The notes under the pieces were generated by a model that worked only from the letters and a program-made list of their open reading frames with translations, was not told where the DNA came from and ran no database searches. Below are positions 1-31,056 of a stretch of 31,056 nt of DNA, in pieces. The stretch lies in NCBI RefSeq assembly GCF_003334335.1, contig NZ_QOWQ01000047.1; one strand, given 5' to 3'. Each line of letters opens with the position of its first letter. The first letter of the stretch is position 1. The position numbers and the translations under genes were made by a program. Source of the DNA: Escherichia coli (GTDB lineage: Bacteria > Pseudomonadota > Gammaproteobacteria > Enterobacterales > Enterobacteriaceae).

Positions 1-463
1 CTTTATTATCGAGTTCGGTGACCGCCTGGACGGCCACTTCTGAGAAAAGGTATTTACACAGAATCCTGAACAGGCTCCCGCAATTCTTTACCCGCCAACC
101 TACCAACAATAGATGCACGTGCTCGTTTTTATCATCACCTAGATCGCCATCACTGTATTAATAGGTATGGTGATGTACTCACAATTCTACAAACCGACGG
201 CTGGCTTCCTCTACCGCAGAAATAATCTACTAAGGCGGTCTAAACGAAATTAATGATGAAATACCGGCATGTTGATAATATCAGAAAAGACATGCCATAG
301 TTATCTTGATCCGAATACCATGTGCGACGACTCGCTCAACTTCCATCATTCTTGGTACGTTGGAATCTCTTAATAAATTCTATCTGGCCACGGTGATTTA
401 TACCCTACTGAATTATATTGCTTTATTGAGAGAAACGGCCGTTCTTGGCAAGAAGCGGACAGA

Positions 464-907
464 CTAACTTAGCAGTAGGTCCGCTGTGAGCGAGGTGCAG
501 AAGTTCGCAATTGTTCTCGCAACCAAGGTAGCTAAAAAACACGGCAGGCAAATGTCTACATGTAAGATACACTTGCTATTATCAAGAATTTTAGTCCTGA
601 AGCATTTTAACTTTCTTCTCATGTTTTTATATTCGCCATTTATCCATTCAGGTTCTTCCCGAATAGCTGATCGCATACAGTGTGTTAGGATATCATTCCA
701 GAAAGCTGCAATCGCATCTGCAAACTCTATAAACTGTGTTTCTGTAACCTCTAGTTGCTCATGACGTAGACTAAATCTGACGGTGTCACCACGATGTAGC
801 ATCAGCATTGCGGTGAGCCGCCGGGCATGGTTTTTGTCATTTGTTTTATGGATAGTTTTCTGCATCAGGTGCCGTTCGGCTCTGGGTATTGGTACTATGA
901 TCGGCAT
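464..907 (-). pseudogene. Transposase-like fragment: first ~45 aa resemble the HTH N-terminus of IS630-family transposases, then diverges; likely truncated or decayed
   Basis: ORF-track translation MPIIVPIPRAERHLMQKTIHKTNDKNHARRLTAMLMLHRGD... recalled from memory as IS630-family-like; the catalytic DDE part is absent. Not verified by search. Confidence 0.3.
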
Positions 908-1289
908 TACTCAGTCCGGCTGGTGATTTGGGATATTCAGCGATTGATCAGATCGCATAAACCGGACTGAGTTCCCCTTGAGTGATCTACTATTCCGAGC
1001 AGCTATTTAGATTGTTATTGATGCCGGAAGAAAACATCACTCGATCAATTCCCCAATAGTCAAGCAAGCAAAAGAGAGTGCTGCACAGTTCAATGCTGGC
1101 CGTTTCATGCGAGGAAAATTCCCTTTTCATTGCAAGTTGCTCAAACTCTTTAGTGCCATCCTGAATGCGATGCTCAGAAAGAACAAAGAAATGTAATGAA
1201 TCCTGCCATCAGGTTACTCCATAATTTTGCTGGTCAAGACAGTTAATTACGTGACGTATGCTCAGGCACCGGATGCCGTTTTACCGGGT

Positions 1290-2021
1290 TCACCTGCCAT
1301 CCAGTAGACGCCCCGGCCCACGACTGCAACCATAATTACGTTGCCCGGAACCGTTATGCAACTTCGTTTCATTTTTCACGAGATAACGGGCTCTCTCCAG
1401 GGCTTTCTGCACCGCTTCCTTGTCACCACGCGTGACCCAGAGCACAGCGGATCCACCAGACTTTTTGTCAGAAGCCTTCCGGGTATCAGAACACCCACTT
1501 GGTAAAGGCGTGTCATCGGAAGAAGGGGGAGCAGCAGGTGATGTCGGTTTACGGGAAGGAGTCCACCTGGAAAAATGGACCAGCCCATCACCCAGCCAGG
1601 GCTCAATACGCAGGGCGCTGCACCATGCCTCCTGGATCAGCGTCGCCAGCGAAGAAGAAACGGTGAAATCCCCGAGCGAGCACCAGGTATCTTTGTTGAG
1701 CAGTAATATCACGTGATAATGTTTCCTGCCATACATCTTGCCGAACTCCCGGCACCAGAAATAACCCAGGCTGGTTGCATGCACACGCTGATTGGCACAT
1801 CTTTTTTTCCGCTGGTAAGCCTGAATTTTGGCTTTCAGGGATTCGAAAAAACGAGAAATCACCGCTGAATCCGGATCGGGCTCCATGATGGTGACAGGCA
1901 TATACTCAGGGAAACGTAAATCCACCCGGATTAACGAGACGGCACGGTGTTGCACCAGGGCACTGTTGAGAATACTTTCAAAACGGGATAACCAGTAATC
2001 ATTGTGTATTGGTTGATTCAT
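1290..2021 (-). CDS. YfjJ/YagK-family protein (Inovirus Gp2-like), typical of CP4-type cryptic prophage islands
   Basis: 243-aa ORF; family assigned from memory of K-12 CP4-57 and CP4-6 paralogs, not from an alignment. Several overlapping antisense ORFs were ignored. Confidence 0.55.
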   Translation of the reverse strand: MNQPIHNDYWLSRFESILNSALVQHRAVSLIRVDLRFPEYMPVTIMEPDPDSAVISRFFESLKAKIQAYQRKKRCANQRVHATSLGYFWCREFGKMYGRKHYHVILLLNKDTWCSLGDFTVSSSLATLIQEAWCSALRIEPWLGDGLVHFSRWTPSRKPTSPAAPPSSDDTPLPSGCSDTRKASDKKSGGSAVLWVTRGDKEAVQKALERARYLVKNETKLHNGSGQRNYGCSRGPGRLLDGR

Positions 2022-2690
2022 GATGAGAGATCTCCGTTGATTTGGATTGACTTCACATCATTAATCGCCGCGGTAAAACTTTACGGCATCCCACCAATGA
2101 GCAACGCCAATAGCTCCTGATTAAAACGGAATGAATCGTCCCGTAACGAAAAGATAATCCTGCACACGACAGCAAAACGTAAAACAACAGCATGAATGAG
2201 CTAAATGTCTAAAGAAAAACTGCCTTTTCACATTATTTTTCAGCGAGTAATCATACCAGCATCCCTAACATACGAAATCGCATCGTGATCGATCGCTGAT
2301 TCGCCGAACAACTGATCGAATACACCGGAATCTGCACTAACATCCTGATGGGTAACGGAAGACTAAAAAACCAGTGTTCTATTGATTGCACGGAATGCCT
2401 GTGCGCTGGCCTGACCAGTAAGCACAATTCTACGAGTAGTAAGATATCTACTCCAAAACCATGCGCAGTAGCCACCATATGTTGCCAGGGTGAAAAATAA
2501 GCTCAGAGCTATAGGGGAGTAATTCCCGTTAATGTCATCGCCGTACCTCAATCAGCTCACAAACTGGCTGAAACGTTAAGCTGAGGCCTTTATTCTTCAG
2601 ATGTATTTTCCGGTTTACCTGTAAATTATCTTCTGATATTTATCACATTAGTAATTGTGCTGATTATCTACATACTTCAAGGTCTGAAAT

Positions 2691-3221
2691 ATGAAGCTAA
2701 CAGAAGAAAGTCTGAATCTAGTCATTGACATCCTGAATGATTTGATCTGTGAAGGAAAAATGCTGAACGATGTGGAGCGCAGATCTCTGCTCAATGCAGT
2801 TATGGCAATTACAGCGGTAAAAGAACGTTCTGTCGTATCTGTATCATCCCGAAAAGAGCAAAGTAAGAAGGAGAAGAAGGAAAGAGAGATCGATCCTCGT
2901 TTCCCAAATGCTGGTGTGGCATGGAATGAGGCAGACGAGAGTTTATTGCGAGATGTTCTGGAGGATGTACCGGACGATGAAATTGGTAAACACCTTTTCT
3001 GGCTGGCAGAGAAACTAGGGCGAACCCCGTACAGTGTAGCCTGTAAAGTCAGACAAATTAAGAAATTACCTGCAGAATGGAAGGATCAATTTCGTAAAAT
3101 CTCTGACAGGATCCGTAGTTCTGGAATGTCAGTCAGTGAATATCTACAACGCCAGGGACTGTTAAGCCCAGAGTCAGGGGAAGAAAACAATCCTGTCAGT
3201 CATAACAACAATGTAGCTTAA
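2691..3221 (+). CDS. Hypothetical protein (176 aa) with a Lys/Glu-rich central linker and a possible C-terminal HTH-like region; unknown family
   Basis: Clean ATG start at 2691, KEQSKKEKKERE low-complexity segment, stop at 3219-3221 followed by a hairpin; sits in the island cargo slot. No family recognised. Confidence 0.45.
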   Translation: MKLTEESLNLVIDILNDLICEGKMLNDVERRSLLNAVMAITAVKERSVVSVSSRKEQSKKEKKEREIDPRFPNAGVAWNEADESLLRDVLEDVPDDEIGKHLFWLAEKLGRTPYSVACKVRQIKKLPAEWKDQFRKISDRIRSSGMSVSEYLQRQGLLSPESGEENNPVSHNNNVA

Positions 3222-3234
3222 TCCTGAAGAAGAT

Positions 3235-3270
3235 GAACAGTTTATACTCTTTAAACTGTTCCCTTAATTT
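3235..3270 (+). terminator. Putative intrinsic terminator after the 176-aa ORF
   Basis: Perfect 10-bp inverted repeat GAACAGTTTA / TAAACTGTTC (3235-3244 and 3252-3261) with a 7-nt loop, followed by a T-rich tract. The stem is AT-rich, so strength is uncertain. Confidence 0.35.
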
Positions 3271-3761
3271 TAGAAAAACAGTTTGTGTAAGTGCATGCTC
3301 CAACATTCTGAAGGCGTTATTTCTTACAATACATCATAATCATTGGCAGATCCTCATCTGAATCAAAACACCACAACCAATCATCACACTTTTTCTGAAA
3401 AGAGCCTTATGATGAAGATAATCACCTTACGCTGAGAAAAAACACCAGGGCCAGTTAATCACCTTATCAATCTCGCCGTTACAAAATCATCCATAAGCCA
3501 TTTAACAGTGTTATCGCAAACTCACAGTAAATCGCATCAGGTTACCTCAATCGGATTTGAGTTAATTCACTGGGCTTTACGTAAAGATACTTTTCTCAAG
3601 CTAACGTCGAAACTCGAAATCTAAGGAAAGGTTAAACGTAACATCAGTAAAATCGAATAGCAGATTGATTGCTTAAACAGAAAGGTTTTACAGCAGCATT
3701 AAACTGATTTAGTTAACGTAAAGATTTACTAAACTGGATGTGTATAGCAATGCTTAACGAA

Positions 3762-3880
3762 AACACTTGTAGAAGTGTTTATGAAAATACGTGTATGTCT
3801 GGTAAAACACTTAGTAGAAAATACGTGTATAACACTTACTGAAATGCTTAGTAAAAATACTTAGTAAAATACGTGTATAT
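3762..3880. repeat. Cluster of direct repeats (three exact copies of AAAATACGTGTAT) plus a palindrome, inside a 1.16-kb AT-rich non-coding region
   Basis: Exact 13-mer at 3784-3796, 3818-3830 and 3866-3878 (spacing 34 and 48 bp); copies 2 and 3 share the extended unit CTTAGTA(G)AAAATACGTGTAT; palindrome AACACTT-gtag-AAGTGTT at 3762-3779. No ORF of 60 aa or more anywhere in 3222-4384. Confidence 0.6.
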
Positions 3881-4384
3881 AGTATCATACCGACATTCTC
3901 AACATCTTCAGACTTCCATACATACTGGGTGTTAATTTTTCACTTTTACAGCCAGCATGGAGTTTTCTGTCCTAAAAACAGAGCAGATTTACTCTGGAGT
4001 TATTTTCCTGTTCACGTATTCAGTACAGCAGAAATCCCGTGATAACGAGACAGTAAACCATCGTAATCAGCGTCTGTAACTCCATCGCTTTACCCCAGAA
4101 AAGTTAAGCCATATAATGTGAGGGATATAAGTCGTCGTATCCGGTAAGTACAGATAACCACAACATAAGCTCATTCAGTAAATTTTATCTCTGAACAAAC
4201 GACTATGGCATGCTCATTTATACTATTCATAAGAAAGTGTGATTATCTGTAAGCATTAACCATCAAATCATATAACCATACTAAACTGGCGGATCATCAG
4301 CACCATTAGCAGGTAACTTATTGAAATTTTATTATGTGTTTTTTGTTGATAATTAATATGCAATATGAATTTGATATTTTAGAA

Positions 4385-5608
4385 TCATGAACACCATTTA
4401 AAATTACCATCATTAATATCATATAAAAATATATTTTTACTAAAACATGAATTGTATATATTTATTAGCTCAGGAAAATTATCAGGGTTCACCTTCAAAT
4501 TAACCTGAATGTTATGCTTAATTTCACCCAGTAGTTCTTCATGTGTGGATTTTATTATCCCATTATTATAATCGATAAATGCACACATGTTTTTTATGAA
4601 TTCAAAACCTTTTCCTGTATACAGTTTAATGAATGCCACCAGAGCAAACATTTCAAGATGTAGCCATAATGCTACGTTAGTTTTTTGCAAAGTATAAAAA
4701 ATTGAATTCGCCACTTTTTTACTTATTGCTCTTTTATACTGTGATCGAGCAAGATTCAGTAGCGGAAGCTCTCGTTCAATAAATGAATGTGAAAAGACTG
4801 GATAAATTGATGTCGGAAACCTTTCAGGCCTTATGATATTTTCTATTTCCACCATAAATCTATCCATAGAAAGAAAGTCACTTTCTTTTTTTATTCTGGT
4901 ATAGAGACCGCCTTTATTCCTTTCTGAGGTTTGTTTTCGTGCTATCCCCCCTAACAATTTCTCTAATTGTTTATTTATCTTCGTATAATTAAATACAACC
5001 ATTCTTCTTATCATCCTCGGAAGGATAATAATATCAGTGCTTGAATCACTTGAACGGCAATTATTATTTATCCATGCAACTTCAAGTTGCAGTATCGGAA
5101 CATTAACTTTTCTGGGGTGAATATCACTCTGATATCGTTTTTTGTATGCGTTTTCATTAAGATATTCTCTGCTGTAGAGAAACTTATAGCAATATAATCT
5201 GATAATATCTTTTATGTAAAATTTAAATAGTTCACCTGTAACAGATATATGTTTTCTGCTCAGTAACTCCTGTGTATTAAGCCATTCCCGTGACCGAAGC
5301 ACACCCTTGTGAAAACTTTTTCTTACTTGCTTTGAGGCACGGCATTGATGTAATATTTTTGCGTCCTCAATAATTCTCTTTCCCGTTTTATTTTTTGCAG
5401 CATCTCTTACTCCATAAAATATCTCCCGGTCCAGACTTTTGTCATATTTACTGATTATACGACAAATATTCCTGACCCGACGATTCTCTTTATTTCGCTT
5501 CCATAGCTTATAATGATCATCGCATAACCTTAAGGCATTTGCCTCATCAAATTCTGAAACAGGATTACTGCATTTTTTATTCCGACAAATACCTTTGTTT
5601 TTAGCCAT
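4385..5608 (-). CDS. Orphan hypothetical protein (407 aa), strongly AT-rich, N-terminal Cys/His cluster (possible zinc-binding or HNH-like finger); candidate cargo or defence gene
   Basis: Long uninterrupted ORF with ATG at 5606-5608 and a GGAAG-like Shine-Dalgarno upstream. Composition is visibly far more AT-rich than flanking DNA. N-terminus reads C-x4-C-x15-C-DD-H. No family recognised. Confidence 0.6.
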   Translation of the reverse strand: MAKNKGICRNKKCSNPVSEFDEANALRLCDDHYKLWKRNKENRRVRNICRIISKYDKSLDREIFYGVRDAAKNKTGKRIIEDAKILHQCRASKQVRKSFHKGVLRSREWLNTQELLSRKHISVTGELFKFYIKDIIRLYCYKFLYSREYLNENAYKKRYQSDIHPRKVNVPILQLEVAWINNNCRSSDSSTDIIILPRMIRRMVVFNYTKINKQLEKLLGGIARKQTSERNKGGLYTRIKKESDFLSMDRFMVEIENIIRPERFPTSIYPVFSHSFIERELPLLNLARSQYKRAISKKVANSIFYTLQKTNVALWLHLEMFALVAFIKLYTGKGFEFIKNMCAFIDYNNGIIKSTHEELLGEIKHNIQVNLKVNPDNFPELINIYNSCFSKNIFLYDINDGNFKWCS

Positions 5609-5661
5609 ACTCTTCTTCCCGTCAATGGAAAAATTTTCACACCCATATTACCTGAATGATA

Positions 5662-5684
5662 AACCGGATTAGTGTGATCCGGTT
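5662..5684. promoter_or_regulatory. Perfect palindrome AACCGGAT-N7-ATCCGGTT in the divergent intergenic region between the 407-aa gene and the GTPase gene; candidate operator
   Basis: Arms at 5662-5669 and 5677-5684 are exact reverse complements. It lies in the 100-bp gap between two divergently oriented start codons (5608 and 5709). Function is inferred. Confidence 0.3.
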
Positions 5685-5708
5685 CAGTGAAATCAACAGG
5701 ATACCGGT

Positions 5709-7214
5709 ATGCCATTCAGCAATTCTTCCCTCTCCGCGCAAGTGAAATCATATCTGACGTTTCTTCCTGAAGAAATACGCCAGAAAATCCTTGAACATCT
5801 CCACGGTGTTATTCATTACGAGCCCGTGATTGGCATTATGGGTAAATCCGGCACCGGCAAGAGCAGCCTGTGTAATGCCATTTTTCAGTCCCGTATCTGC
5901 GCCACGCATCCCCTGAACGGCTGCACCCGCCAGGCTCATCGTCTTACCCTGCAGCTCGGTGAACGCAGAATGACGCTGGTCGATCTGCCCGGCATTGGTG
6001 AAACACCGCAGCATGATCAGGAATACCGAGCGCTTTATCGTCAGTTACTGCCGGAACTGGATCTGATTATCTGGATCCTGCGGAGTGATGAACGTGCGTA
6101 TGCTGCCGATATTGCCATGCATCAGTTTTTACTGAATGAGGGCGCAGATCCCTCGCGCTTTCTGTTTGTTCTCAGCCATGCCGATCGCATGTTTCCTGCT
6201 GAAGAATGGAATGCCACAGAAAAATGCCCGTCCCGTCACCAGGAACTCTCACTGGCGACAGTAACAGCCCGGGTGGCCACCCTGTTCCCTTCATCATTTC
6301 CGGTACTCCCCGTAGCCGCGCCTGCAGGCTGGAACCTTCCAGCGCTGGTGTCACTGATGATCCACGCGCTGCCACCACAGGCAACCAGCGCAGTTTATTC
6401 ACATATCCGGGGGGAAAACCACTCTGAACAGGCCCGGAAACACGCACAACTGACTTTTGGTGAAACCATCGGGAAAAGTTTTGACGACGCCGTTGCCCGT
6501 TTCAGTTTTCCGCCCTGGATGTTACAGCTTCTGCGCAAAACCCGGGACCGCATTATCCACCTGCTGTTCACTGTGGCATCCTTCTCCACCTCCGCCGGTA
6601 ACTGGGCTGTCAAAAACGGCTGGTGCCAGACCATGACGGAAGATGGTCAGGCGCTGGTAATGCTGAAAAATGGCACGATTGGTATTACCGGCCTGATGCA
6701 GGGATGCCCGAATGGCGTACAGACGCTCCTGGGCAGCCGTATCAGTATTAACGGTAACCTGATCCCCACATCACAAATGTGTAATCAGCAGACGGGATTC
6801 AGGGCTGTTGAGGTGGAAGTCGGACAGGCGCCGGAAATGGTCAAAAAAGCCGTTCACTCCATAGCAGAGCGTGATGTGTCCGTTTTACAGGCATTTGGTG
6901 TACGAATGGAATTCACCCGCGGTGATATGCTGAAGGTCTGTCCGAAATTTGTCACATCACTTGCCGGTTTTTCCCCGAAACAGACACCCGCCATTAATAA
7001 AGATTCCGTCCTGCAGGCTGCCCGGCAGGCATACGCCCGGGAATATGACGAGGAAACAACAGAAACCGCTGATTTTGGCTCTTACGAAGTAAAAGGCAAT
7101 AAGGTTGAGTTTGAAGTGTTCAATCCTGAAGACCGTGCGTACGACAAAGTGACCGTCACGGTTGGTGCTGACGGTAATGCCACCGGTGCCAGCGTTGAAT
7201 TTATCGGAAAATAG
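5709..7214 (+). CDS. YeeP/YfjP/YkfA-family P-loop GTPase with an extra ~210-aa C-terminal extension
   Basis: Walker A motif GKSGTGKSS near residue 45 and a DLPG motif; the N-terminal ~290 aa resemble K-12 CP4 GTPases (about 287 aa, from memory). The ORF runs on to 501 aa. Confidence 0.7.
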
Positions 7215-7219
7215 CTGGT

Positions 7220-7453
7220 ATGTCGGACTGTCACCCTGTTTTATTGCCCGAAGGCCCTTTCTCACGCGAACAGGCGATGGCTGTCACAACAGCTTACCGC
7301 AATGTGCTTATTGAAGATGATCAGGGAACGCATTTCCGGCTGGTTATCCGCAATGCTGAAGGGCAGCTACGCTGGCGGTGCTGGAATTTTGAACCTGATG
7401 CCGGAAAACAGCTTAATGCGGGGCTCGCCAGTGAGGGAATTCTCAGGCAATAA
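7220..7453 (+). CDS. DUF905-like small protein (YkfF-like) of the CP4 island backbone
   Basis: 77-aa ORF with ...[19 protein letters not shown]...HFRLV...WNFEPDAG..., recalled as the DUF905 family. From memory only. Confidence 0.5.
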
Positions 7454-7551
7454 ACGTCTTCATTTCATCCATCAGGCCACGTCTTCTCCGGGAGACGTGG
7501 CTTTTTCATTTATTACACCAGTAAATCTTAACCACCAATAAGGAGCAAATC

Positions 7552-8370
7552 ATGCGATTAGCAAGTCGTTTTGGTTATGCGAACCAGATACGCCGTGACC
7601 GCCCCTTAACTCGCGAAGAACTGATGCAGGTCGTCCCCAGCGTATTCGGGGAAGATAAGCACACATCCAGAAGCGAGAACTATACCTGGATCCCCACCAT
7701 CACAGTGCTGGAAAGCCTGCAGCGGGAAGGTTTTCAGCCATTCTTTGCCTGCCAGACCCGCGTACGTGACCCGGGCCGCCGGGGGTATACCAAACACATG
7801 CTGCGTCTGCGCCGTGACGGGGAGATAAACGGACAACATGTCCCTGAAATCATCCTGCTGAACTCCCATGACGGTACCTCCAGCTACCAGATGCTGCCGG
7901 GTTACTTCAGGTTCGTCTGCCAGAACGGCTGCGTCTGTGGTCAGTCTCTGGGGGAAGTGCGTGTTCCGCACCGGGGAAATGTGGTGGACAGAGTCATTGA
8001 AGGGGCTTACGAGGTGGTGGGCGTGTTTGACCGGATTGAGGAAAAGCGTGATGCCATGCAGTCGCTGATTCTGCCGCCACCGGCACGCCAGGCGCTGGCA
8101 CAGGCGGCACTGACTTACCGTTATGGTGACGAACATCAGCCCGTCACCACCGCCGACATTCTGACGCCACGACGCCGGGAGGATTACGGTAAGGACCTGT
8201 GGAGTGCTTATCAGACCATCCAGGAAAATATGCTGAAAGGCGGGATTTCCGGTCGCAGCGCTAAAGGAAAACGTATCCACACCCGTGCCATTCACAGCAT
8301 CGACACGGACATTAAGCTCAATCGCGCATTGTGGGTGATGGCAGAAACGCTGCTGGAGAGCATGCGCTGA
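7552..8370 (+). CDS. DUF932-family protein (YafZ/YfjQ-like)
   Basis: 272-aa ORF; length and position after the GTPase match CP4 island DUF932 genes. The antisense 275-aa ORF (7606-8433) was rejected. Confidence 0.6.
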   Translation: MRLASRFGYANQIRRDRPLTREELMQVVPSVFGEDKHTSRSENYTWIPTITVLESLQREGFQPFFACQTRVRDPGRRGYTKHMLRLRRDGEINGQHVPEIILLNSHDGTSSYQMLPGYFRFVCQNGCVCGQSLGEVRVPHRGNVVDRVIEGAYEVVGVFDRIEEKRDAMQSLILPPPARQALAQAALTYRYGDEHQPVTTADILTPRRREDYGKDLWSAYQTIQENMLKGGISGRSAKGKRIHTRAIHSIDTDIKLNRALWVMAETLLESMR

Positions 8371-8461
8371 TGCTGTTTCCCTGAAAGTGCAGCCCTGACT
8401 CACGTCTGTACCAGTCCCCAGGCATTCTTCCATTCATTTACTTTTTATAAGGAATCATCTC

Positions 8462-8947
8462 ATGACAACCTTTTCGCATAGCTCCACCACACCTTCTGTT
8501 TCCGTAACCACTGCATCAGGGAATAACCAGTCTCAACTGGTTGCCACCATAGTCCCTGATGAACAGCGCATCAGCTTCTGGCCGCAGCACTTTGGCCTCA
8601 TTCCACAGTGGGTGACCCTGGAGCCCCGTGTCTTCGGCTGGATGGACCGTCTGTGTGAAGACTACTGCGGTGGTATCTGGAATCTGTACACCCTGAATAA
8701 CGGCGGCGCATTTATGGCGCCCGAACCGGATGAAGATGATGACGAAACATGGGTACTGTTCAATGCCATGAACAGTAACCGCGCTGAAATGAGCCCGGAA
8801 GCCGCCGGCATTGCAGCCTGTCTGATGACGTACAGCCATCATGCCTGTCGTATGGAGTGTTATGCCATGACGGTCCATTATTACCGGCTGCGGGATTATG
8901 CCCTGCAGCATCCGGAATGCAGCGCCATTATGCGCATCATTGACTGA
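8462..8947 (+). CDS. Antirestriction protein, KlcA/ArdB-like (YfjX/YafX family)
   Basis: 161-aa ORF with an acidic stretch EPDEDDDE and the conserved position immediately upstream of the RadC-like gene. Confidence 0.65.
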   Translation: MTTFSHSSTTPSVSVTTASGNNQSQLVATIVPDEQRISFWPQHFGLIPQWVTLEPRVFGWMDRLCEDYCGGIWNLYTLNNGGAFMAPEPDEDDDETWVLFNAMNSNRAEMSPEAAGIAACLMTYSHHACRMECYAMTVHYYRLRDYALQHPECSAIMRIID

Positions 8948-8961
8948 AAGGGGCCGGAACA

Positions 8962-9438
8962 ATGCAACAGATTTCCTTTCTGCCCGGAGAAATGACGCCC
9001 GGTGAGCGCAGCCTCATTCAGCGGGCCCTGAAAACCCTGGACCGCCATCTTTATGAACCCGGCGTGGCCTTCACCTCCACGCATGCGGCACGGGAGTGGC
9101 TGATTCTGAACATGGCGGGACTGGAGCGGGAAGAGTTCCGGGTGCTGTATCTGAACAACCAGAATCAGCTGATTGCCGGTGAAACCCTTTTCACCGGCAC
9201 CATCAACCGCACGGAAGTCCATCCCCGGGAAGTGATTAAACGCGCCCTGTACCACAATGCCGCTGCCGTGGTACTGGCGCACAATCACCCGTCCGGTGAA
9301 GTCACACCCAGTAAGGCAGACCGGCTTATCACCGAACGTCTGGTACAGGCACTGGGCCTGGTGGATATCCGGGTGCCGGACCATCTGATAGTCGGTGGCA
9401 GCCAGGTTTTCTCCTTTGCCGAACATGGTCTGCTTTAA
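8962..9438 (+). CDS. RadC-like JAB/MPN-domain protein (YeeS/YkfG/YfjY family)
   Basis: 158-aa ORF containing the JAMM-type motif HNHPSG (...VVLAHNHPSGEVTPSKAD...). Confidence 0.75.
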   Translation: MQQISFLPGEMTPGERSLIQRALKTLDRHLYEPGVAFTSTHAAREWLILNMAGLEREEFRVLYLNNQNQLIAGETLFTGTINRTEVHPREVIKRALYHNAAAVVLAHNHPSGEVTPSKADRLITERLVQALGLVDIRVPDHLIVGGSQVFSFAEHGLL

Positions 9439-9500
9439 CCCGTCACAACCACATCACACCTGTTTTCACTTTTATCTTCTGTCTTCAGAGGTATCACACT

Positions 9501-9722
9501 ATGAAAATCATCACCCGTGGTGAAGCCATGCGTATTCACCGTCAGCATCCAGCATCCCGTCTTTTTCCGTTCTGTACCGGTAAATACCGCTGGCACGGTA
9601 GCACGGATACGTATACCGGCCGTGAAGTACAGGATATTCCCGGTGTGCTGGCCGTGTTTGCTGAACGCCGTAAGGACAGTTTTGGTCCGTATGTCCGGCT
9701 GATGAGCGTCACCCTGAACTGA
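9501..9722 (+). CDS. DUF987-family small protein (YeeT/YkfH-like)
   Basis: 73-aa ORF in the conserved position between the RadC-like gene and the CbeA-like antitoxin. Confidence 0.55.
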   Translation: MKIITRGEAMRIHRQHPASRLFPFCTGKYRWHGSTDTYTGREVQDIPGVLAVFAERRKDSFGPYVRLMSVTLN

Positions 9723-9801
9723 GTCTGGAAGGGCATTCAGAAGAGCAGAATTATCGCCACCACCGGACCATTCTTAACCAATTTTCTGTGAGGATTTTAT
9801 C

Positions 9802-10170
9802 GTGTCAGACACATTCTCCGGGACAACGCATCCCGATGACAATCACGACCGCCCCTGGTGGGGACTGCCCTGCACCGTGACGCCCTGTTTTGGTTCCCGT
9901 CTGGTACAGGAAGGCAACCGGTTGCATTACCTTGCCGACCGCGCCGGTATCAGAGGGCGGTTCAGCGACGCGGATTCGTACCACCTGGACCAGGCCTTTC
10001 CGCTGCTGATGAAACAACTGGAACTCATGCTCACCAGCGGTGAACTGAATCCCCGCCATCAGCATACCGTCACGCTGTATGCAAAAGGGCTGACCTGCGC
10101 AGCCGACACCCTCGGCAGTTGTGGCTACGTTTATATGGCTGTTTATCCGACGCCCGAAACGAAAAAGTAA
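9802..10170 (+). CDS. Type IV antitoxin of the CbeA/YeeU/YafW/YfjZ family
   Basis: 122-aa ORF directly upstream of a CbtA-like toxin gene; sequence pattern recalled as YeeU-like. Confidence 0.7.
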   Translation: MSDTFSGTTHPDDNHDRPWWGLPCTVTPCFGSRLVQEGNRLHYLADRAGIRGRFSDADSYHLDQAFPLLMKQLELMLTSGELNPRHQHTVTLYAKGLTCAADTLGSCGYVYMAVYPTPETKK

Positions 10171-10259
10171 CTCTCCAGAATAACCTTCTGCTCCGGCCTG
10201 GTGCTTTCACCACGCCACTTTTCCATTTTTCATCTCTGCATATCAGGAAAATCTTCAGT

Positions 10260-10637
10260 ATGAAAACATTACCTGTATTACCCGGGCTGGCGGCCAGTTC
10301 ACGCCCGTCTCCGGTTGAAATCTGGCAGACACTGCTCACCCGACTGCTGGATCAGCACTACGGCCTTACGCTGAATGACACACCATTCGCTGATGAACGT
10401 GTGATTGAGCAGCATATTGAGGCAGGCATTTCACTGTGTGATGCGGTGAACTTTCTCGTTGAAAAATACGCGCTGGTACGTACCGACCAGCCGGGATTCA
10501 GCGCCTGTACCCGTTCTCAGTTAATAAACAGTATTGATATCCTCCGGGCACGCCGGGCAACCGGCCTGATGACACGCGACAACTACAGAACGGTAAATAA
10601 CATTACCCTGGGTAAACATCCGGGGGCGAAACAATGA
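10260..10637 (+). CDS. Type IV toxin of the CbtA/YeeV/YkfI/YpjF family
   Basis: The track ORF starts at 10119, but the start consistent with the family is the ATG at 10260 (MKTLPVLPGLAAS...), giving about 125 aa and leaving a 90-bp gap after the antitoxin stop. Confidence 0.7.
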   Translation: MKTLPVLPGLAASSRPSPVEIWQTLLTRLLDQHYGLTLNDTPFADERVIEQHIEAGISLCDAVNFLVEKYALVRTDQPGFSACTRSQLINSIDILRARRATGLMTRDNYRTVNNITLGKHPGAKQ

Positions 10638-11056
10638 AACAGGCCCTGACGCTGGAAGCCGACAGCATTAATGCGCAGGCGCTGAACATGGGGCGCATTG
10701 TCGTTGACGTCGATGGTATTGAGCTCGCTGAACTGATTAACAAAGTCGCTGAAAACGGTTATTCACTCCGCGTGGTGGATGAACGTGACGCTACCGAAAC
10801 ACCGGCGACTTCTGCCAGCCCTCATCAGTTGCCGGAAGACAATACAGTGATACAGAGCGTGATGCCATTAACCACTGAAACAGCGCTGGATATCCTCATT
10901 GCGTGGCTGCAGGACAATATCGACTGCGAATCGGGAATTATCTTTGACAACGATGAGGATAAAACGGATTCGGCAGCACTGTTGCCCTGTATCGAACAGG
11001 CCCGGGAGGATGTCCGGACTCTTCGTCATCTGCAGCTTCTGCACCAGAACCGGTAA
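10634..11056 (+). CDS. YeeW-like protein (unknown function) downstream of the toxin
   Basis: 140-aa ORF whose ATG overlaps the toxin stop in an ATGA junction at 10634-10637; acidic composition. Confidence 0.45.
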   Translation: MKQALTLEADSINAQALNMGRIVVDVDGIELAELINKVAENGYSLRVVDERDATETPATSASPHQLPEDNTVIQSVMPLTTETALDILIAWLQDNIDCESGIIFDNDEDKTDSAALLPCIEQAREDVRTLRHLQLLHQNR

Positions 11057-11140
11057 ATATCACTCACCATACTTCATTCCACTGACGTCAGCCTGAACAG
11101 GGCTGGCGTTTTCGTTTATAAACCAAAAGGGAAACCGATC

Positions 11141-11983
11141 ATGTCAGACATCACAATCTCCCGTCCGGAAGTGGTCACCGGGCATACGGACGTTATCTGC
11201 TCAATCAGTATCCGCCACATTCTGGCTGTACGAAAGAGTACACTGCTGCAAATCGACACACTTATCCGGCAACTGGCTGAAATATCAGCAATGACAGAAA
11301 GTATTGGCGGTAAAGCCGCCCCGGACTGGGCCATGAAACAGGATTTTCGCTGCGGCTGCTGGCTGATGGAGAAACCGGAAACCGCAATGAAAGCCATCAC
11401 ACGCAATCTCGATCGCGAAATCTGGCGTGACCTGATGCAACGTTCAGGGATGCTTTCCTTAATGGATGCACAGGCCCGTGATACATGGTACCGGTCACTG
11501 GAGCACGATAATTTTCCGGAAATCAGTGAAGCGAACATTCTGAGCACATTTGAACAACTACACCAGAATAAGGATGAGGTGTTTGAGCGAGGGGTGATCA
11601 ACGTCTTCAGGGGACTGAACTGGAATTACAAAACCAATTGCCCCTGCAAATTTGGCAGTAAAATTATCGTCAACAACCTAGTGAGGTGGGACCGATGGGG
11701 GTTTCATCTTATCACCGGGCAACAGACTGACCGACTCGTCGACCTGGAAAGAATGCTACATCTGTTCAGCGGCAAACCGATCCCCGACAACCGGGAAAAC
11801 ATCACTATTCGTCTGGATGGTCACATCCAGTCCGTTCAGGGTAAAGAGCGCAATGAAGACGAGATGTTCATCATTAAATACTTTAAGAAGGGATCTGCAC
11901 ACATCACTTTCAAAAGGCTGGAACTGATTGACAGAATTAACGATATAATAGCCAGGTACTTTCCTTCTGTGCTCTCAGCCTGA
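11141..11983 (+). CDS. DUF4942-like protein, last gene of the island before the attachment-site repeat
   Basis: 280-aa ORF; the family name is recalled from annotations of similar islands and is not verified. The antisense ORF 11116-11601 was rejected. Confidence 0.5.
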   Translation: MSDITISRPEVVTGHTDVICSISIRHILAVRKSTLLQIDTLIRQLAEISAMTESIGGKAAPDWAMKQDFRCGCWLMEKPETAMKAITRNLDREIWRDLMQRSGMLSLMDAQARDTWYRSLEHDNFPEISEANILSTFEQLHQNKDEVFERGVINVFRGLNWNYKTNCPCKFGSKIIVNNLVRWDRWGFHLITGQQTDRLVDLERMLHLFSGKPIPDNRENITIRLDGHIQSVQGKERNEDEMFIIKYFKKGSAHITFKRLELIDRINDIIARYFPSVLSA

Positions 11984-12093
11984 TCCCGAGTGTGATTCCC
12001 TTTCGATATCAAAAGGGACTGCGGGTATAATTGAGGGTATATTTTTAATCAAACCAAATAAATTATATTAATATCAATATGATAAAAGAAATT

Positions 12094-12115
12094 TTCGATT
12101 CCGAGTCCGGCACCA
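12094..12115 (+). other. pheU: 3'-terminal 22-nt fragment of tRNA-Phe (pheU) without the rest of the gene: island attachment-site repeat (attR-type junction)
   Basis: TTCGATTCCGAGTCCGGCACCA matches the 3' end of E. coli tRNA-Phe (...GGTTCGATTCCGAGTCCGGGCACCA) with one G missing. The upstream bases are AT-rich island DNA, not tRNA. Confidence 0.6.
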
Positions 12116-12125
12116 AATTCATATA

Positions 12126-12155
12126 AACGGACCTCCACGGAGGTCCGTTTTTCGT
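12126..12155 (+). terminator. Intrinsic terminator (native pheU terminator) directly after the tRNA fragment
   Basis: AAACGGACCTCCACGGAGGTCCGTTTTTCG: a GC-rich stem (CGGACCT / AGGTCCG) followed by a T-run. Confidence 0.6.
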
Positions 12156-12731
12156 TTCAGGACGCCACGATTTAAGCGTTCTGCCTCCAAATCAATTCTA
12201 CCGAACTCAACCAGATTCTCCCCACATCACCAGCAATTTGCGGGCATATCCCAATTCGGGAAAATTTGTTCCTGAGCTATAGCACTAACTGACGTGAAAT
12301 GTCGTGCGGCCCCGTGATGCTGTTGAACGTCAAATGACGTCATCAGGAGCGTAACGCATCCATAAAGCACAACACCGGTCTGAACGGCGACTGATGAGAT
12401 TTTCTGAATGAGAACAAAGAGAAATGTATCAGTTCGCTTGCTCATGCAAAGACTAACAATCCATTAAAATAGTAAGTGCTCCGGACAATTTTCCATGGAT
12501 TATTTTCTGAACATTTTTCTTTGGCAAAGATGATGAATTTTGATGGTAAGGAATATTACTTCTGGTTCTCAGTAAAATCCTTTCGTAATACTATGTAATC
12601 AAGAAGTTTATGGCTGGTAAAAATAACGTCTTGCATTCACCAATAATATGTAAATAAACCCATCTATAGATGGTAAAAATAGGTTGTGGCAATTATCATT
12701 GCATCATTCCCTTTTCGAATGAGTTTCTATT

Positions 12732-14270
12732 ATGCAACAACCTGTAGTTCGCGTTGGCGAATGGCTTGTTACTCCGTCCATAAACCAAATTAGCCGCAAT
12801 GGGCGTCAACTTACCCTTGAGCCGAGATTAATCGATCTTCTGGTTTTCTTTGCTCAACACAGTGGCGAAGTACTTAGCAGGGATGAACTTATCGATAATG
12901 TCTGGAAGAGAAGTATTGTCACCAATCACGTTGTGACGCAGAGTATCTCAGAACTACGTAAGTCATTAAAAGATAATGATGAAGATAGTCCTGTCTATAT
13001 CGCTACTGTACCAAAGCGCGGCTATAAATTAATGGTGCCGGTTATCTGGTACAGCGAAGAAGAGGGAGAGGAAATAATGCTATCTTCGCCTCCCCCTATA
13101 CCAGAGGCGGTTCCTGCCACAGATTCTCCCTCCCACAGTCTTAACATTCAAAACACCGCAACGCCACCTGAACAATCCCCAGTTAAAAGCAAACGATTCA
13201 CTACCTTTTGGGTATGGTTTTTTTTCCTGTTGTCGTTAGGTATCTGTGTAGCACTGGTAGCGTTTTCAAGTCTTGATACACGTCTTCCTATGAGCAAATC
13301 GCGTATTTTGCTCAATCCACGCGATATTGACATTAATATGGTAAATAAAAGTTGTAACAGCTGGAGTTCCCCGTATCAGCTCTCTTACGCGATAGGCGTG
13401 GGTGATTTGGTGGCGACATCACTTAACACCTTCTCCACCTTTATGGTGCATGACAAAATCAACTACAACATTGATGAACCGAGCAGTTCCGGTAAAACAT
13501 TATCTATTGCGTTTGTTAATCAGCGCCAATACCGTGCTCAACAATGCTTTATGTCGATAAAATTGGTAGACAATGCAGATGGTTCAACCATGCTGGATAA
13601 ACGTTATGTCATCACTAACGGTAATCAGCTGGCGATTCAAAATGATTTACTGGAGAGTTTATCAAAAGCGTTAAACCAACCGTGGCCACAACGAATGCAG
13701 GAGACGCTCCAGAAAATTTTGCCGCATCGTGGTGCGTTATTAACTAATTTTTATCAGGCACATGATTATTTACTGCATGGCGATGATAAATCATTGAACC
13801 GTGCCAGTGAATTATTAGGTGAGATTGTTCAATCATCCCCAGAATTTACCTACGCGAGAGCAGAAAAAGCATTAGTTGATATCGTGCGCCATTCTCAACA
13901 TCCTTTAGATGAAAAACAATTAGCAGCACTGAACACAGAAATAGATAACATTGTTACACTGCCGGAATTGAACAACCTGTCCATTATATATCAAATAAAA
14001 GCGGTCAGTGCTCTGGTAAAAGGTAAAACAGATGAGTCTTACCAGGCGATAAATACTGGCATTGATCTTGAAATGTCCTGGCTAAATTATGTGTTGCTTG
14101 GCAAGGTTTATGAAATGAAGGGGATGAACCGGGAAGCAGCTGATGCATATCTCACCGCCTTTAATTTACGCCCAGGGGCAAACACCCTTTACTGGATTGA
14201 AAATGGTATATTCCAGACTTCTGTTCCTTATGTTGTACCTTATCTCGACAAATTTCTTGCTTCAGAATAA
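12732..14270 (+). CDS. cadC: CadC, membrane-integrated ToxR-like transcriptional activator of the cad operon
   Basis: 512-aa translation recognised as CadC (MQQPVVRVGEWLVTPSINQISRNGRQLTLEPRLIDLL...), with the expected synteny upstream of cadBA. Confidence 0.93.
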   Translation: MQQPVVRVGEWLVTPSINQISRNGRQLTLEPRLIDLLVFFAQHSGEVLSRDELIDNVWKRSIVTNHVVTQSISELRKSLKDNDEDSPVYIATVPKRGYKLMVPVIWYSEEEGEEIMLSSPPPIPEAVPATDSPSHSLNIQNTATPPEQSPVKSKRFTTFWVWFFFLLSLGICVALVAFSSLDTRLPMSKSRILLNPRDIDINMVNKSCNSWSSPYQLSYAIGVGDLVATSLNTFSTFMVHDKINYNIDEPSSSGKTLSIAFVNQRQYRAQQCFMSIKLVDNADGSTMLDKRYVITNGNQLAIQNDLLESLSKALNQPWPQRMQETLQKILPHRGALLTNFYQAHDYLLHGDDKSLNRASELLGEIVQSSPEFTYARAEKALVDIVRHSQHPLDEKQLAALNTEIDNIVTLPELNNLSIIYQIKAVSALVKGKTDESYQAINTGIDLEMSWLNYVLLGKVYEMKGMNREAADAYLTAFNLRPGANTLYWIENGIFQTSVPYVVPYLDKFLASE

Positions 14271-14634
14271 GTAACTCCGGGTTGATTTATGCTCGGAAAT
14301 ATTTGTTGTTGAGTTTTTGTATGTTCCTGTTGGTATAATATGTTGCGGCAATTTATTTGCCGCATAATTTTTATTACATAAATTTAACCAGAGAATGTCA
14401 CGCAACCCATTGTAAACATTAAATGTTTATCTTTTCATGATATCAACTTGCGATCCTGATGTGTTAATAAAAAACCTCAAGTTCTCACTTACAGAAACTT
14501 TTGTGTTATTTCACCTAATCTTTAGGATTAATCCTTTTTTCGTGAGTAATCTTATCGCCAGTTTGGTCTGGTCAGGAAATAGTTATACATCATGACCCGG
14601 ACTCCAAATTCAAAAATGAAATTAGGAGAAGAGC
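14271..14634 (+). promoter_or_regulatory. cadC-cadB intergenic region containing the cadBA promoter (Pcad) and CadC binding region
   Basis: Position only: established knowledge places Pcad and the CadC sites upstream of cadB. Individual sites were not mapped. Confidence 0.45.
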
Positions 14635-15969
14635 ATGAGTTCTGCCAAGAAGATCGGGCTATTTGCCTGTACCGGTGTTGTTGCCGGTAATATGATGGGG
14701 AGCGGTATTGCATTATTACCTGCGAACCTAGCAAGTATCGGTGGTATTGCTATCTGGGGTTGGATTATCTCTATTATTGGTGCAATGTCGCTGGCGTATG
14801 TATATGCCCGACTGGCAACAAAAAACCCGCAACAAGGTGGCCCAATTGCTTATGCCGGAGAAATTTCCCCTGCATTTGGTTTTCAGACAGGTGTTCTTTA
14901 TTACCATGCTAACTGGATTGGTAACCTGGCGATTGGTATTACCGCTGTATCTTATCTTTCCACCTTCTTCCCAGTATTAAATGATCCTGTTCCGGCGGGT
15001 ATCGCCTGTATTGCTATCGTCTGGGTATTTACCTTTGTAAATATGCTCGGCGGTACTTGGGTAAGCCGTTTAACCACTATTGGTCTGGTGCTGGTTCTTA
15101 TTCCTGTGGTGATGACTGCTATTGTTGGCTGGCATTGGTTTGATGCGGCAACTTATGCAGCTAACTGGAATACTGCGGATACCACTGATGGTCATGCGAT
15201 CATTAAAAGTATTCTGCTCTGCCTGTGGGCCTTCGTGGGTGTTGAATCCGCAGCTGTAAGTACTGGTATGGTTAAAAACCCGAAACGTACCGTTCCGCTG
15301 GCAACCATGCTGGGTACTGGTTTAGCAGGTATTGTTTACATCGCTGCGACTCAGGTGCTTTCCGGTATGTATCCGTCTTCTGTAATGGCGGCTTCCGGTG
15401 CTCCGTTTGCAATCAGTGCTTCAACTATCCTCGGTAACTGGGCTGCGCCGCTGGTTTCTGCATTCACCGCCTTTGCGTGCCTGACTTCTCTGGGCTCCTG
15501 GATGATGTTGGTAGGCCAGGCAGGTGTACGTGCCGCTAACGACGGTAACTTCCCGAAAGTTTATGGTGAAGTCGACAGCAACGGTATTCCGAAAAAAGGT
15601 CTGCTGCTGGCTGCAGTGAAAATGACTGCCCTGATGATCCTTATCACTCTGATGAACTCTGCCGGTGGTAAAGCATCTGACCTGTTCGGTGAACTGACCG
15701 GTATCGCAGTACTGCTGACTATGCTGCCGTATTTCTACTCTTGCGTTGACCTGATTCGTTTTGAAGGCGTTAACATCCGCAACTTTGTCAGCCTGATCTG
15801 CTCTGTACTGGGTTGCGTGTTCTGCTTCATCGCGCTGATGGGCGCAAGCTCCTTCGAGCTGGCAGGTACCTTCATCGTCAGCCTGATTATCCTGATGTTC
15901 TACGCTCGCAAAATGCACGAGCGCCAGAGCCACTCAATGGATAACCACACCGCGTCTAACGCACATTAA
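14635..15969 (+). CDS. cadB: CadB, lysine/cadaverine antiporter
   Basis: 444-aa polytopic membrane protein (MSSAKKIGLFACTGVVAGNMMGSGIALLPANLAS...) between cadC and cadA. Confidence 0.93.
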   Translation: MSSAKKIGLFACTGVVAGNMMGSGIALLPANLASIGGIAIWGWIISIIGAMSLAYVYARLATKNPQQGGPIAYAGEISPAFGFQTGVLYYHANWIGNLAIGITAVSYLSTFFPVLNDPVPAGIACIAIVWVFTFVNMLGGTWVSRLTTIGLVLVLIPVVMTAIVGWHWFDAATYAANWNTADTTDGHAIIKSILLCLWAFVGVESAAVSTGMVKNPKRTVPLATMLGTGLAGIVYIAATQVLSGMYPSSVMAASGAPFAISASTILGNWAAPLVSAFTAFACLTSLGSWMMLVGQAGVRAANDGNFPKVYGEVDSNGIPKKGLLLAAVKMTALMILITLMNSAGGKASDLFGELTGIAVLLTMLPYFYSCVDLIRFEGVNIRNFVSLICSVLGCVFCFIALMGASSFELAGTFIVSLIILMFYARKMHERQSHSMDNHTASNAH

Positions 15970-16039
15970 TTAAAAGTATTTTCCGAGGCTCCTCCTTTCA
16001 TTTTGTCCCATGTGTTGGGAGGGGCCTTTTTTACCTGGA

Positions 16040-18196: not shown

Positions 18197-18209
18197 TTAG
18201 CTCGTACAA

Positions 18210-18237
18210 GGGAAGTGGCTTGCCACTTCCCTTTTTT
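18210..18237 (+). terminator. Intrinsic terminator after cadA
   Basis: GGGAAGTGG-cttg-CCACTTCCC hairpin (9-bp GC-rich stem) followed by TTTTTT. Confidence 0.65.
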
Positions 18238-18254
18238 GCTCATAAGGAGAACAC

Positions 18255-19712: not shown

Positions 19713-19948
19713 CTGTCGTAAAAACAATTGGTTATGAATAAATTAACTTTCAGTTTATAACACTAACAAATCGAGATTAATAAGTCATTTAAACCATTTT
19801 GATGGTTATTTATTAGTGATATCAACTTGAGGTAAGCGTTAGTTTCGATAAGATAAACTGAGTTACTAATAGTCGAGGCAGATAATACAGTGTACCGATC
19901 TGTCTCTTTATCTACGCTAAATTGAAAGCTGGATTTAGAGGAACCAAA

Positions 19949-21466: not shown

Positions 21467-21479
21467 ATTTCACTTTAAT

Positions 21480-21509
21480 GAACGAAGCAGTCAGGCGACT
21501 GCTTCGTTC
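21480..21509. terminator. Hairpin between convergent lysU and ghoT; possible bidirectional terminator
   Basis: 13-bp perfect stem GAACGAAGCAGTC / GACTGCTTCGTTC with a 4-nt loop. T-tracts on both sides are weak. Confidence 0.45.
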
Positions 21510-21584
21510 ATCGTTCCGCAAATCCAGTTTTGAGGAGAGACGCTTCGTTTCACGATAACCAGCGGGTCCACTCAACTACAGCTC

Positions 21585-21758
21585 CTAAAAGAGAGAAAAA
21601 AGTAATGCCACAGGCAGACTCATTGGCCAGGTTATTCCGACCAGGAATGCACTAAGTAAACGAATATGTGTTTTCTCATGTGAGATAAACCAGATAATGA
21701 CAAAGGATATGTTCACACCAATCACATAAAAAATTAATATTTTAGAGAATAGTGCCAT
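21585..21758 (-). CDS. ghoT: GhoT, small membrane toxin of the type V GhoT/GhoS toxin-antitoxin pair (57 aa; below the ORF-track length cutoff)
   Basis: Hand translation of the minus strand gives MALFSKILIFYVIGVNISFVIIWFISHEKTHIRLLSAFLVGITWPMSLPVALLFSLF-stop, 27 bp downstream of ghoS. Confidence 0.8.
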   Translation of the reverse strand: MALFSKILIFYVIGVNISFVIIWFISHEKTHIRLLSAFLVGITWPMSLPVALLFSLF

Positions 21759-21785
21759 TTTTTATGTTCTTCTTATCCTTCCTGG

Positions 21786-22581: not shown

Positions 22582-22592
22582 TTTACCCTCGC

Positions 22593-27262: not shown

Positions 27263-27271
27263 ATGCACTTT

Positions 27272-27306: not shown

Positions 27307-27339
27307 GAATAACAAATACAGAGTTACAGGCTGGAAGCT

Positions 27340-28986: not shown

Positions 28987-28993
28987 CCTCTTC

Positions 28994-30968: not shown

Positions 30969-31056
30969 GCAAACAAAGAGAGCCTGTACATAGATTTGTG
31001 TAATTGCCTGATTTTGATATGTTCAATCCAGCATCAAATGAAGGTTAATTTATGGA

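Follow-up and report, generated by a model that had tools for sequence, protein, structure and literature searches.

The window, that is, the whole 31,056-nucleotide stretch of DNA analysed here, begins and ends inside copies of IS1414 (Table 1). Its first 77 nt comprise the terminal inverted repeat and the final 43 nt of the transposase gene. The insertion has interrupted an island gene; what remains of it, its 3' end, matches the end of a 1353-bp gene from the CFIAFB20190157 selC island at 99.8% identity. With IS1414 at both ends, the window looks like a whole draft contig. Between these limits lie a run of island genes, a short G+C-poor arm, a partial copy of a tRNA gene, the remnants of a spacer and of an integrase gene and, from cadC onwards, conserved chromosomal DNA.

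Table 1. Features of the 31,056-nt window, with strand and the basis of each assignment
Position	Strand	Feature	Basis
1..77	+	IS1414 (IS256 family), right end	98.8% identity to IS1414 3' end, strain UPEC85
78..223	+	Hypothetical island gene, 3' end, interrupted by IS1414	
778..907	-	IS630-family transposase, N-terminal remnant	L004 annotation (99.8%-identical stretch), ORF translation
1290..2021	-	YagK/YfjJ-type ('inovirus Gp2 family') protein, CP4 backbone gene	30% identity over 241 aa to K-12 YfjJ; phrog_25019 at 1e-31; RefSeq names agree
2691..3221	+	176-aa hypothetical protein	Conserved in L002 and L004
4385..5608	-	407-aa orphan protein, 32.5% G+C DNA	Conserved in L002 and L004 as WP_001107214.1
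5709..7214	+	YfjP/YeeP-type GTPase fused in frame to downstream secreted hypothetical protein	Pfam MMR_HSR1 at 3e-14; 36% identity to YfjP
7220..7453	+	DUF905 protein	RefSeq annotation of homologues; K-12 ypjI region match
7552..8370	+	DUF932 protein (YfjQ-like)	76% identity to K-12 YfjQ; phrog_12094 at 7e-129
8462..8947	+	KlcA/ArdB-type antirestriction protein	72% identity to K-12 LfgA/YfjX; phrog_10132 'anti-restriction protein' at 3e-62
8962..9438	+	RadC-like JAB-domain protein	98% identity to K-12 YeeS; TIGR00608 above cut-off
9501..9722	+	DUF987 protein	93% identity to K-12 YeeT
9802..10170	+	CbeA/YeeU antitoxin, type IV toxin-antitoxin pair	90% identity to K-12 CbeA
10260..10637	+	CbtA/YeeV cytoskeleton-binding toxin	96% identity to K-12 CbtA
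10634..11056	+	YeeW-like protein (DUF5983/DUF957 region), single 140-aa ORF	59% identity, K-12 yeeW region
11141..11983	+	DUF4942 protein, last island gene	Pfam PF13708 at 3.1e-65
11984..12093	+	Island-side arm beside core, 29% G+C spacer, 110 nt	Composition, TUM9754 comparison
12094..12115	+	attR core, tRNA-Phe 3' end, 22 nt, one G missing	Alignment to K-12 pheU
12116..12275	+	Relic of an older island's tRNA-to-integrase spacer, with hairpin	Similarity to attL spacer
12305..12490	+	P4-type integrase gene, 3' remnant (K-12 pseudogene yjdQ), frameshifted	RefSeq/K-12 annotation
12732..14270	+	cadC, first conserved chromosomal gene on the right	K-12 match, annotation
30980..31056	+	Second IS1414 copy, left end, inserted in melB	77 nt, 100% identity

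Backbone genes of the island

The genes between 1290 and 11983 are those of a CP4 backbone. Searches by tblastn against K-12 CP4-44 and CP4-57, together with Pfam, PHROGs and NCBIfam, recovered the backbone set (YfjJ, YfjP GTPase, DUF932, antirestriction, RadC, DUF987 and CbeA/CbtA proteins), and this direct protein homology to genes of both K-12 elements bears out the CP4-like character proposed in the first-pass annotation. The genes are homologous to, and collinear with, those of CP4-44 and CP4-57, at identities of 30-98%. The integration sites differ, however: the present island lies at pheU, whereas CP4-57 occupies ssrA and CP4-44 a site other than a Phe tRNA gene. The window also differs in having no Ag43 gene. 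The island ends, as had been recognized earlier, in a DUF4942-like gene, which gives a strong Pfam match but has no counterpart in either the CP4-44 locus or the compared part of CP4-57. Inserts at pheU, pheV and selC are reported to carry a Z1226-type gene close to their 3' end (PMC6174562).

The in-frame GTPase fusion was created by a deletion of ~1.07 kb, which removed the gene for a helix-turn-helix (HTH) regulator. The deletion maps to positions 20326-21396 of the comparator locus L002, where a short microhomology, CCTGCTG.TCAC, is present. The YeeW-like region is one ORF in the window, whereas the comparators are annotated there with a DUF5983 fragment and a separate DUF957 gene. The 407-aa and 176-aa ORFs have no family match in Pfam, NCBIfam, PADLOC or PHROGs. 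Cargo, a full integrase and transfer genes are all absent from the visible 12 kb, which carry backbone genes only. P4 replication and capsid-hijacking functions (alpha primase-helicase, sid, psu, delta) were assigned by PHROGs to none of eight ORFs (0/8) in the visible 12 kb and are also missing from the RefSeq names of the homologues of this stretch, within which the element does not qualify as a satellite phage P4 proper. Nor, over the same 12 kb, does it qualify as an ICE of the type found at pheU/pheV (e.g. ICEEc2): the window ORFs include no type IV secretion system, relaxase or coupling protein, and none is annotated in the corresponding stretch of the comparators.

The description of the island DNA as AT-rich holds in part. 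Atypical G+C is confined to 2022-5708 (36.6%) and the 110-nt arm at 11984-12093 (29%), and the description fails for 5709-11983 (53%) and for the island part overall, which at 46.7% (1-12115) compares with 47.3% in the flank. Since overall G+C equals that of the flank, base composition was dropped as a sign of foreign origin.

The junction at pheU

From 12094 to 30979, where the match stops, the window aligns with 99.968% identity to the K-12 DNA downstream of pheU, and the gene order to the right of the core is cadC-cadB-cadA-dtpC-lysU-ghoST-yjdJI-dcuSR-dcuB-fumB-yjdF-melB. This flank, with cadC as its first conserved gene, fixes the site as pheU, in agreement with the insertion point first suggested. 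The host of the island is probably an E. coli closely related to K-12. DNA to the left of 12094 has no counterpart in the K-12 alignment, the break-point being the first base of the core.

The core at 12094-12115 reads TTCGATTCCGAGTCCGGCACCA. The last 23 nt of K-12 pheU are TTCGATTCCGAGTCCGGGCACCA, and in the alignment the window core is the same sequence minus one G of the GGG run. The K-12 alignment thus confirms that the window retains only 22 nt of the tRNA-Phe 3' end, one G short. An intact 76-nt tRNA-Phe at the junction, named in the first-pass annotation as potential counter-evidence, is absent; ARAGORN detected no tRNA gene and Rfam no RNA family in the window. The core is present in a single copy: searches with the 23-nt and 22-nt forms, allowing up to 3 mismatches, found no second copy in the window, and 100 shuffles gave 0 matches. 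The att-type junction expected inside the window is therefore there: the match to K-12 begins exactly at the tRNA 3' core, the position expected of an attR, and the insert ends at a partial 3' copy of its target tRNA gene. The G-less core is the standard published form of this attR and no private lesion (PMC11537424, PMC6174562). A 22-nt attR identical to the window core is found in many GI-pheV islands (PMC11537424, Table 1), pheU/pheV inserts have a 22-bp repeat with a 1-nt shift (PMC6174562), and the identical G-less variant occurs in P13-6 and 2018-02-2CC. On the island side, the spacer at 11984-12093 is nearly identical in the TUM9754 attR, and similarity to the selC-island relative is lost at 11934, before the spacer is reached; the spacer is specific to Phe-tRNA islands.

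Strains differ in that some have the island and others a precise empty site. Among 5426 complete E. coli genomes, and with each arrangement tallied separately so that the figures are marginal counts, the same DUF4942-core-cadC junction occurs in 899 (~one in six, 99.8% identity), the arrangement dicD-pheU-full integrase in 1303, and the empty site, contiguous dicD-pheU-yjdQ-cadC, in 3703, K-12 among them. The comparison with empty-pheU strains that had been recommended thus agrees with the exact break-point against K-12, and places the strain among those E. coli, roughly one third, in which pheU is occupied.

An older scar beside the core

The stretch first described as island closed at 12155, but foreign DNA continues past 12115 and past 12155, as a spacer relic and then yjdQ. 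Positions 12094-12229 are 94-96% identical to the sequence that follows the intact pheU at attL. In TUM9754 and P13-6, the final ~200 bp of the 1263-bp integrase gene share 82-86% nucleotide identity with window 12305-12490, the translation of which matches the integrase C-terminus. The stretch 12116-12490, also present in K-12, is what is left of an older island of the same family that has been deleted almost completely. The window is identical to K-12, with its yjdQ scar, over 12116-12731; however, in K-12 the scar adjoins an intact pheU, whereas in the window it adjoins only the 22-nt attR copy. The 'empty' pheU site of K-12 is not pristine, and boundaries drawn against K-12 miss the scar at 12116-12490.

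The terminator noted earlier after the core is represented by a hairpin at 12125-12150 (an 11-pair stem, then a T-run), but the sequence itself is island-derived. The sequence of 12116-12275 also follows pheV where that site is occupied, and not where it is empty, while in K-12 the spacer relic now acts as the DNA downstream of pheU. The hairpin as the native pheU terminator was rejected as the whole story, being present at pheV only when that site is occupied.

A tentative and rather doubtful generalization is that the pheU site of every E. coli may have two layers. The 'empty' site, that of K-12 included, would carry a ~0.4-0.5 kb skeleton of an ancient P4-type island, the source of the hairpin and of some of the DNA upstream of cadC. 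Later islands would insert in tandem with this skeleton, producing direct repeats of ~140-180 bp and 94-96% identity at the island ends. These repeats, together with the island-borne one-base difference in attR, could make RecA-dependent homologous recombination, over excision by the integrase, the principal way in which islands are lost and exchanged here.

Relatives and origin of the island

The exact island occurs in no complete genome (0/5426), the best match having 96% identity over 90-93%. As no identical island exists among them and the left 2.6 kb of the window are closest to a selC island, the element is a mosaic, the left half of which is not predictable from relatives. The selC island of CFIAFB20190157 is 99.8% identical to window 74-3831 and 98.7% identical to 3854-6571, and it has the same backbone order up to DUF4942. 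However, it lies at selC (setC/yicL flank) and has kept the HTH regulator lost from the window. Three complete genomes that share this junction were compared (TUM9754, P13-6 and 2018-02-2CC). In line with the earlier inference, all three have an intact pheU 55.3-55.9 kb to the left, followed after 197 bp by a 1263-bp integrase gene (3/3), and in each a second copy of the core is contained within the intact tRNA gene (attL; 3/3). These islands are about 55-56 kb long.

The GI-pheV/GI-pheU islands with intP4, among them PAI-CFT073-pheU, PAI-S88-pheU, SHI-3 and the pheU- and pheV-borne LEE variants (PMC11537424, PMC6174562, PMC7545054), resemble the window in their target (the tRNA-Phe 3' end), in the 22-nt attR TTCGATTCCGAGTCCGG-CACCA, in a right-end backbone that closes with a Z1226/DUF4942 gene, and in their IS-rich mosaic structure. 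The window differs in that its 12 kb show no virulence or fitness cargo. Islands of 20-64 kb are found at pheU in many strains (PMC7545054). The kind of island, the pheU junction and the 22-nt G-less attR are thus ordinary and already documented, and the locus has little significance beyond annotation.

Very probably, to judge from the sequence and its relatives, positions 1-12115 are the right end of a mosaic CP4-like island inserted at the 3' end of pheU, the rest of which lies beyond IS1414. P4-family tyrosine integrases recombine an island core with the identical 3' end of a tRNA gene. In the present case, the integrase would have joined the core of the circular island with the final ~23 nt of pheU, which have the same sequence. 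A complete pheU would have been rebuilt at the left end (attL), beside the integrase gene, and a partial tRNA copy, the 22-mer at 12094-12115, left at the right end (attR). The island lies in tandem with what is left of the older one at 12116-12490, and its remainder would be on other contigs, past the IS1414 copy. That left-hand remainder most likely includes, tens of kilobases away, an integrase gene and an intact pheU; both are predicted rather than seen in this genome, as the window starts within IS1414.

It is conceivable, but unlikely, that the 12 kb are instead an immobile, decayed or rearranged relic of an island once at pheU, from which IS1414 or another IS removed or moved the left part, the integrase and/or attL having been lost or being no longer contiguous. 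IS1414 at both window ends, the second copy in melB, does indicate a lineage with active IS1414, and decay is visible in the IS630 remnant, the interrupted gene and the 1.07-kb deletion that fused two genes. The attR is, moreover, one base off the tRNA, and a single mismatch between repeats can cut island loss by orders of magnitude (PMC11537424). However, pheU and a full-length integrase gene are kept in all three complete genomes with this junction, the dicD-pheU-integrase arrangement is, as a marginal count, the more frequent (1303 genomes against 899 with this attR), and an IS at a contig end is a normal outcome of short-read assembly that needs no rearrangement.

That no duplication took place, pheU having lost its 5' 53 nt by deletion or insertion so that the 22-mer is its sole remnant, is highly improbable. 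A single core copy is visible in the window, and the loss would be tolerable with pheV as another tRNA-Phe gene in E. coli; against this, the break-point lies exactly at the published att core, and the same G-less junction coexists with an intact pheU in P13-6 and 2018-02-2CC. Chance similarity or an assembly chimaera, which a contig bounded by repeats might bring to mind, is scarcely credible given the absence of matches in the shuffles and the recurrence of the junction, at 99.8% identity, in 899 closed genomes.

The insertion of IS1414 in melB has a counterpart in ETEC H10407, but there it occupies another position than in the window. The pheU region of H10407 is also unlike that of the window, with IS1 and an EAL-domain gene beside cadC.

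The attR junction at pheU

The junction at the right-hand end of the island is known and common, and the first-pass annotation, which had reported a partial tRNA-Phe end lacking one G at pheU, described a real feature and interpreted it rightly. The core aligns with the final 23 nt of pheU in K-12 MG1655, minus one G of the GGG run. Identity to the empty K-12 site begins exactly at the first base of the core and spans the hairpin, the pseudogene yjdQ and cadC; over the whole flank it reaches 99.968% (4 mismatches and 2 gaps in 18,887 columns). The gene order is that of K-12 (cadC, cadB, cadA, dtpC, lysU, ghoST, yjdJ, yjdI, dcuSR, dcuB, fumB, yjdF, melB), which identifies pheU rather than pheV as the integration site. 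The window has a single copy of the core, and shuffled sequence gave no match to it. No tRNA gene or Rfam family was detected across the window, an intact tRNA-Phe at the junction included.

The commonest attR of pheV islands is TTCGATTCCGAGTCCGG-CACCA (PMC11537424, Table 1), and attR-carrying islands have a mean size of 75 kb (PMC11537424). Inserts at pheU and pheV alike show a 22-bp direct repeat that is shifted by one base from K-12, and a Z1226 (DUF4942-type) gene is typical near their 3' terminus (PMC6174562). Islands of 20-64 kb occupy pheU in CFT073, CE10, S88 and ED1a, as do SHI-3 and LEE variants (PMC7545054). Both island feature and junction have therefore already been described. Among 5426 complete E. 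coli genomes, 3703 have the empty site (contiguous dicD-pheU-yjdQ-cadC), 1303 have a full-length integrase gene next after dicD-pheU, and the window's junction (DUF4942-core-yjdQ-cadC) is found in 899.

Features of the window
Position	Feature	Observation
1-77	IS1414 (IS256 family)	right end
74-6571	selC-island match	98.7-99.8% identical to CFIAFB20190157
464-907	147-aa ORF	starts as IS630-family transposase N-terminus, then unrelated sequence
778-907	IS630-family transposase remnant	by a relative's annotation
1247-12600	pheU-island match	93-98% identity, e.g. TUM9754
1290-11983	ORFs	conserved CP4-type island backbone
3222-4384	1.16 kb, 34.5% G+C	without annotation in relatives too; no ORF of at least 70 aa, no Rfam match
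3753/3835	44-nt direct repeat	imperfect; inside 3222-4384
3804-3869	13-nt tandem array	degenerate; inside 3222-4384
4385-5608 (-)	407-aa ORF, WP_001107214.1	DNA 32.5% G+C
5709-7214	501-aa ORF	fusion
10634-11056	140-aa ORF	YeeW-like
12094-12115	core	TTCGATTCCGAGTCCGGCACCA
12094-30979	right flank	K-12 alignment
12116-12617	older island skeleton	common to K-12
12125-12150	hairpin and T-run	stem of 11 pairs
12305-12490	yjdQ	82-86% identical to last ~200 bp of integrase gene
30980-31056	second IS1414 copy	left end, within melB

The opposite end in relatives and the course of integration

Three genomes sharing the window's junction (TUM9754, P13-6 and 2018-02-2CC) were traced to the island's opposite end, attL, and in all three an intact pheU is followed 197 bp on by a 1263-bp tyrosine integrase gene. 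The TUM9754 island (55.3 kb) has a perfect 23-nt repeat as its attR core and carries the IreA receptor, a type I restriction-modification remnant, genes for sugar/dicarboxylate transport and metabolism, and many IS. The islands of P13-6 (55.6 kb; fec, an aryl-polyene-like cluster, Ag43) and 2018-02-2CC (55.9 kb; Zorya II, large helicase/methylase genes) end in the window's G-less 22-mer. In 2018-02-2CC (island loci L010, 1-28641, and L009, 1-1864), a type II Zorya system lies beside a block of very large genes (helicase, methyltransferase and STY4851-family); anti-phage defence can therefore be among the cargo of islands sharing this right end. By analogy with these relatives, the present genome very probably contains an intact pheU and an integrase gene as well.

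Direct observation covers the break-point in the tRNA core, the empty site, the island backbone and, in relatives, how attL is built. P4-family integrases recombine core to core, restoring the tRNA at attL and leaving a partial copy at attR. The missing G would be carried on the core's island side, because the same variant occurs at pheV and pheU despite their differing right flanks and the tRNA copy retains GGG; strand exchange would then sit to the right of the missing-G position. Since one mismatch between the repeats can cut island loss by orders of magnitude (PMC11537424), the window's attR may be predicted to be a poor excision substrate.

An older island skeleton beyond the core

The island had been taken to end at 12155, but foreign DNA extends further, through yjdQ. 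In the comparators, the DNA after the intact pheU resembles that after the window's attR far past the core, with 94-96% identity over 12094-12229 and a weaker match on to ~12275. This spacer, hairpin included, also lies downstream of an occupied pheV (strain ST3, yqgA-pheV-integrase), whereas the empty pheV of K-12 is followed by other sequence with a hairpin of its own, so the spacer is island-borne. The translation of yjdQ corresponds, with frameshifts, to the integrase C-terminus, and a weak match to the DNA that follows the integrase gene extends as far as ~12617. The GC-rich terminator of the first-pass annotation does exist as a hairpin with a T-run, but spacer and yjdQ together show that it is part of the skeleton of a former island from this family. 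The stretch common to K-12 is an older P4-type skeleton, made up of the spacer with its hairpin, yjdQ and a trace of post-integrase DNA, that ends ~115 bp short of the cadC start. The tandem older scar and the resulting long repeat are among the only mildly new points.

Mosaic structure, contig ends and backbone decay

The island is a mosaic, with matches to both selC and pheU islands. Similarity to the CFIAFB20190157 selC island ends at 11934, right before the Phe-specific arm, and no complete genome was found with the whole stretch at >96% identity. The CP4-like character claimed earlier is borne out by tblastn against K-12 CP4-44 (YeeS 98% identity, CbtA 96%, YeeT 93%, CbeA 90%, YeeW 59%) and CP4-57 (YfjQ 76%, LfgA 72%, YfjP 36%, YfjJ 30%). 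Family scans are concordant (RadC, GTPase domain, antirestriction protein, DUF932), and the last gene before the core, previously called DUF4942-like, matches that Pfam family at 3e-65. The visible 12 kb of the island contain no integrase, excisionase, transfer genes or obvious cargo. The description of the island as AT-rich holds for the 110-nt spacer before the core (29% G+C) and for 2-5.7 kb (37%), but not for 5.7-12 kb (53%) or the island part overall (46.7% versus 47.3% in the flank). The 407-aa ORF has zero matches in Pfam, NCBIfam, PADLOC and PHROGs; other strains carry a conserved copy at the corresponding position of their pheU and selC islands.

Both window ends are IS1414 pieces of exactly 77 nt in like orientation; the right copy breaks melB at 30979, and the strain holds multiple copies. 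IS-mediated rearrangement may have affected the island's left part. As 77 is a frequent largest k-mer of short-read assemblers, the window itself looks like a whole draft contig bounded by a repeat.

Gene structure at the YeeW-like position differs among islands: the window has a single ORF, the comparators a truncated DUF5983 pseudogene and a separate DUF957 gene. In the 501-aa ORF a YfjP-like GTPase, which runs to ~residue 286, is fused with a 225-aa hypothetical protein that is normally secreted. The fusion results from a deletion of ~1.07 kb at a short microhomology (CCTGCTG.TCAC), which also took out the gene for an HTH (YfjR-like) regulator; TUM9754 and CFIAFB20190157 retain that gene. 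Some decay events in the backbone, too, are only mildly new. The hybrid 147-aa ORF likewise points to decay in its stretch of the island.
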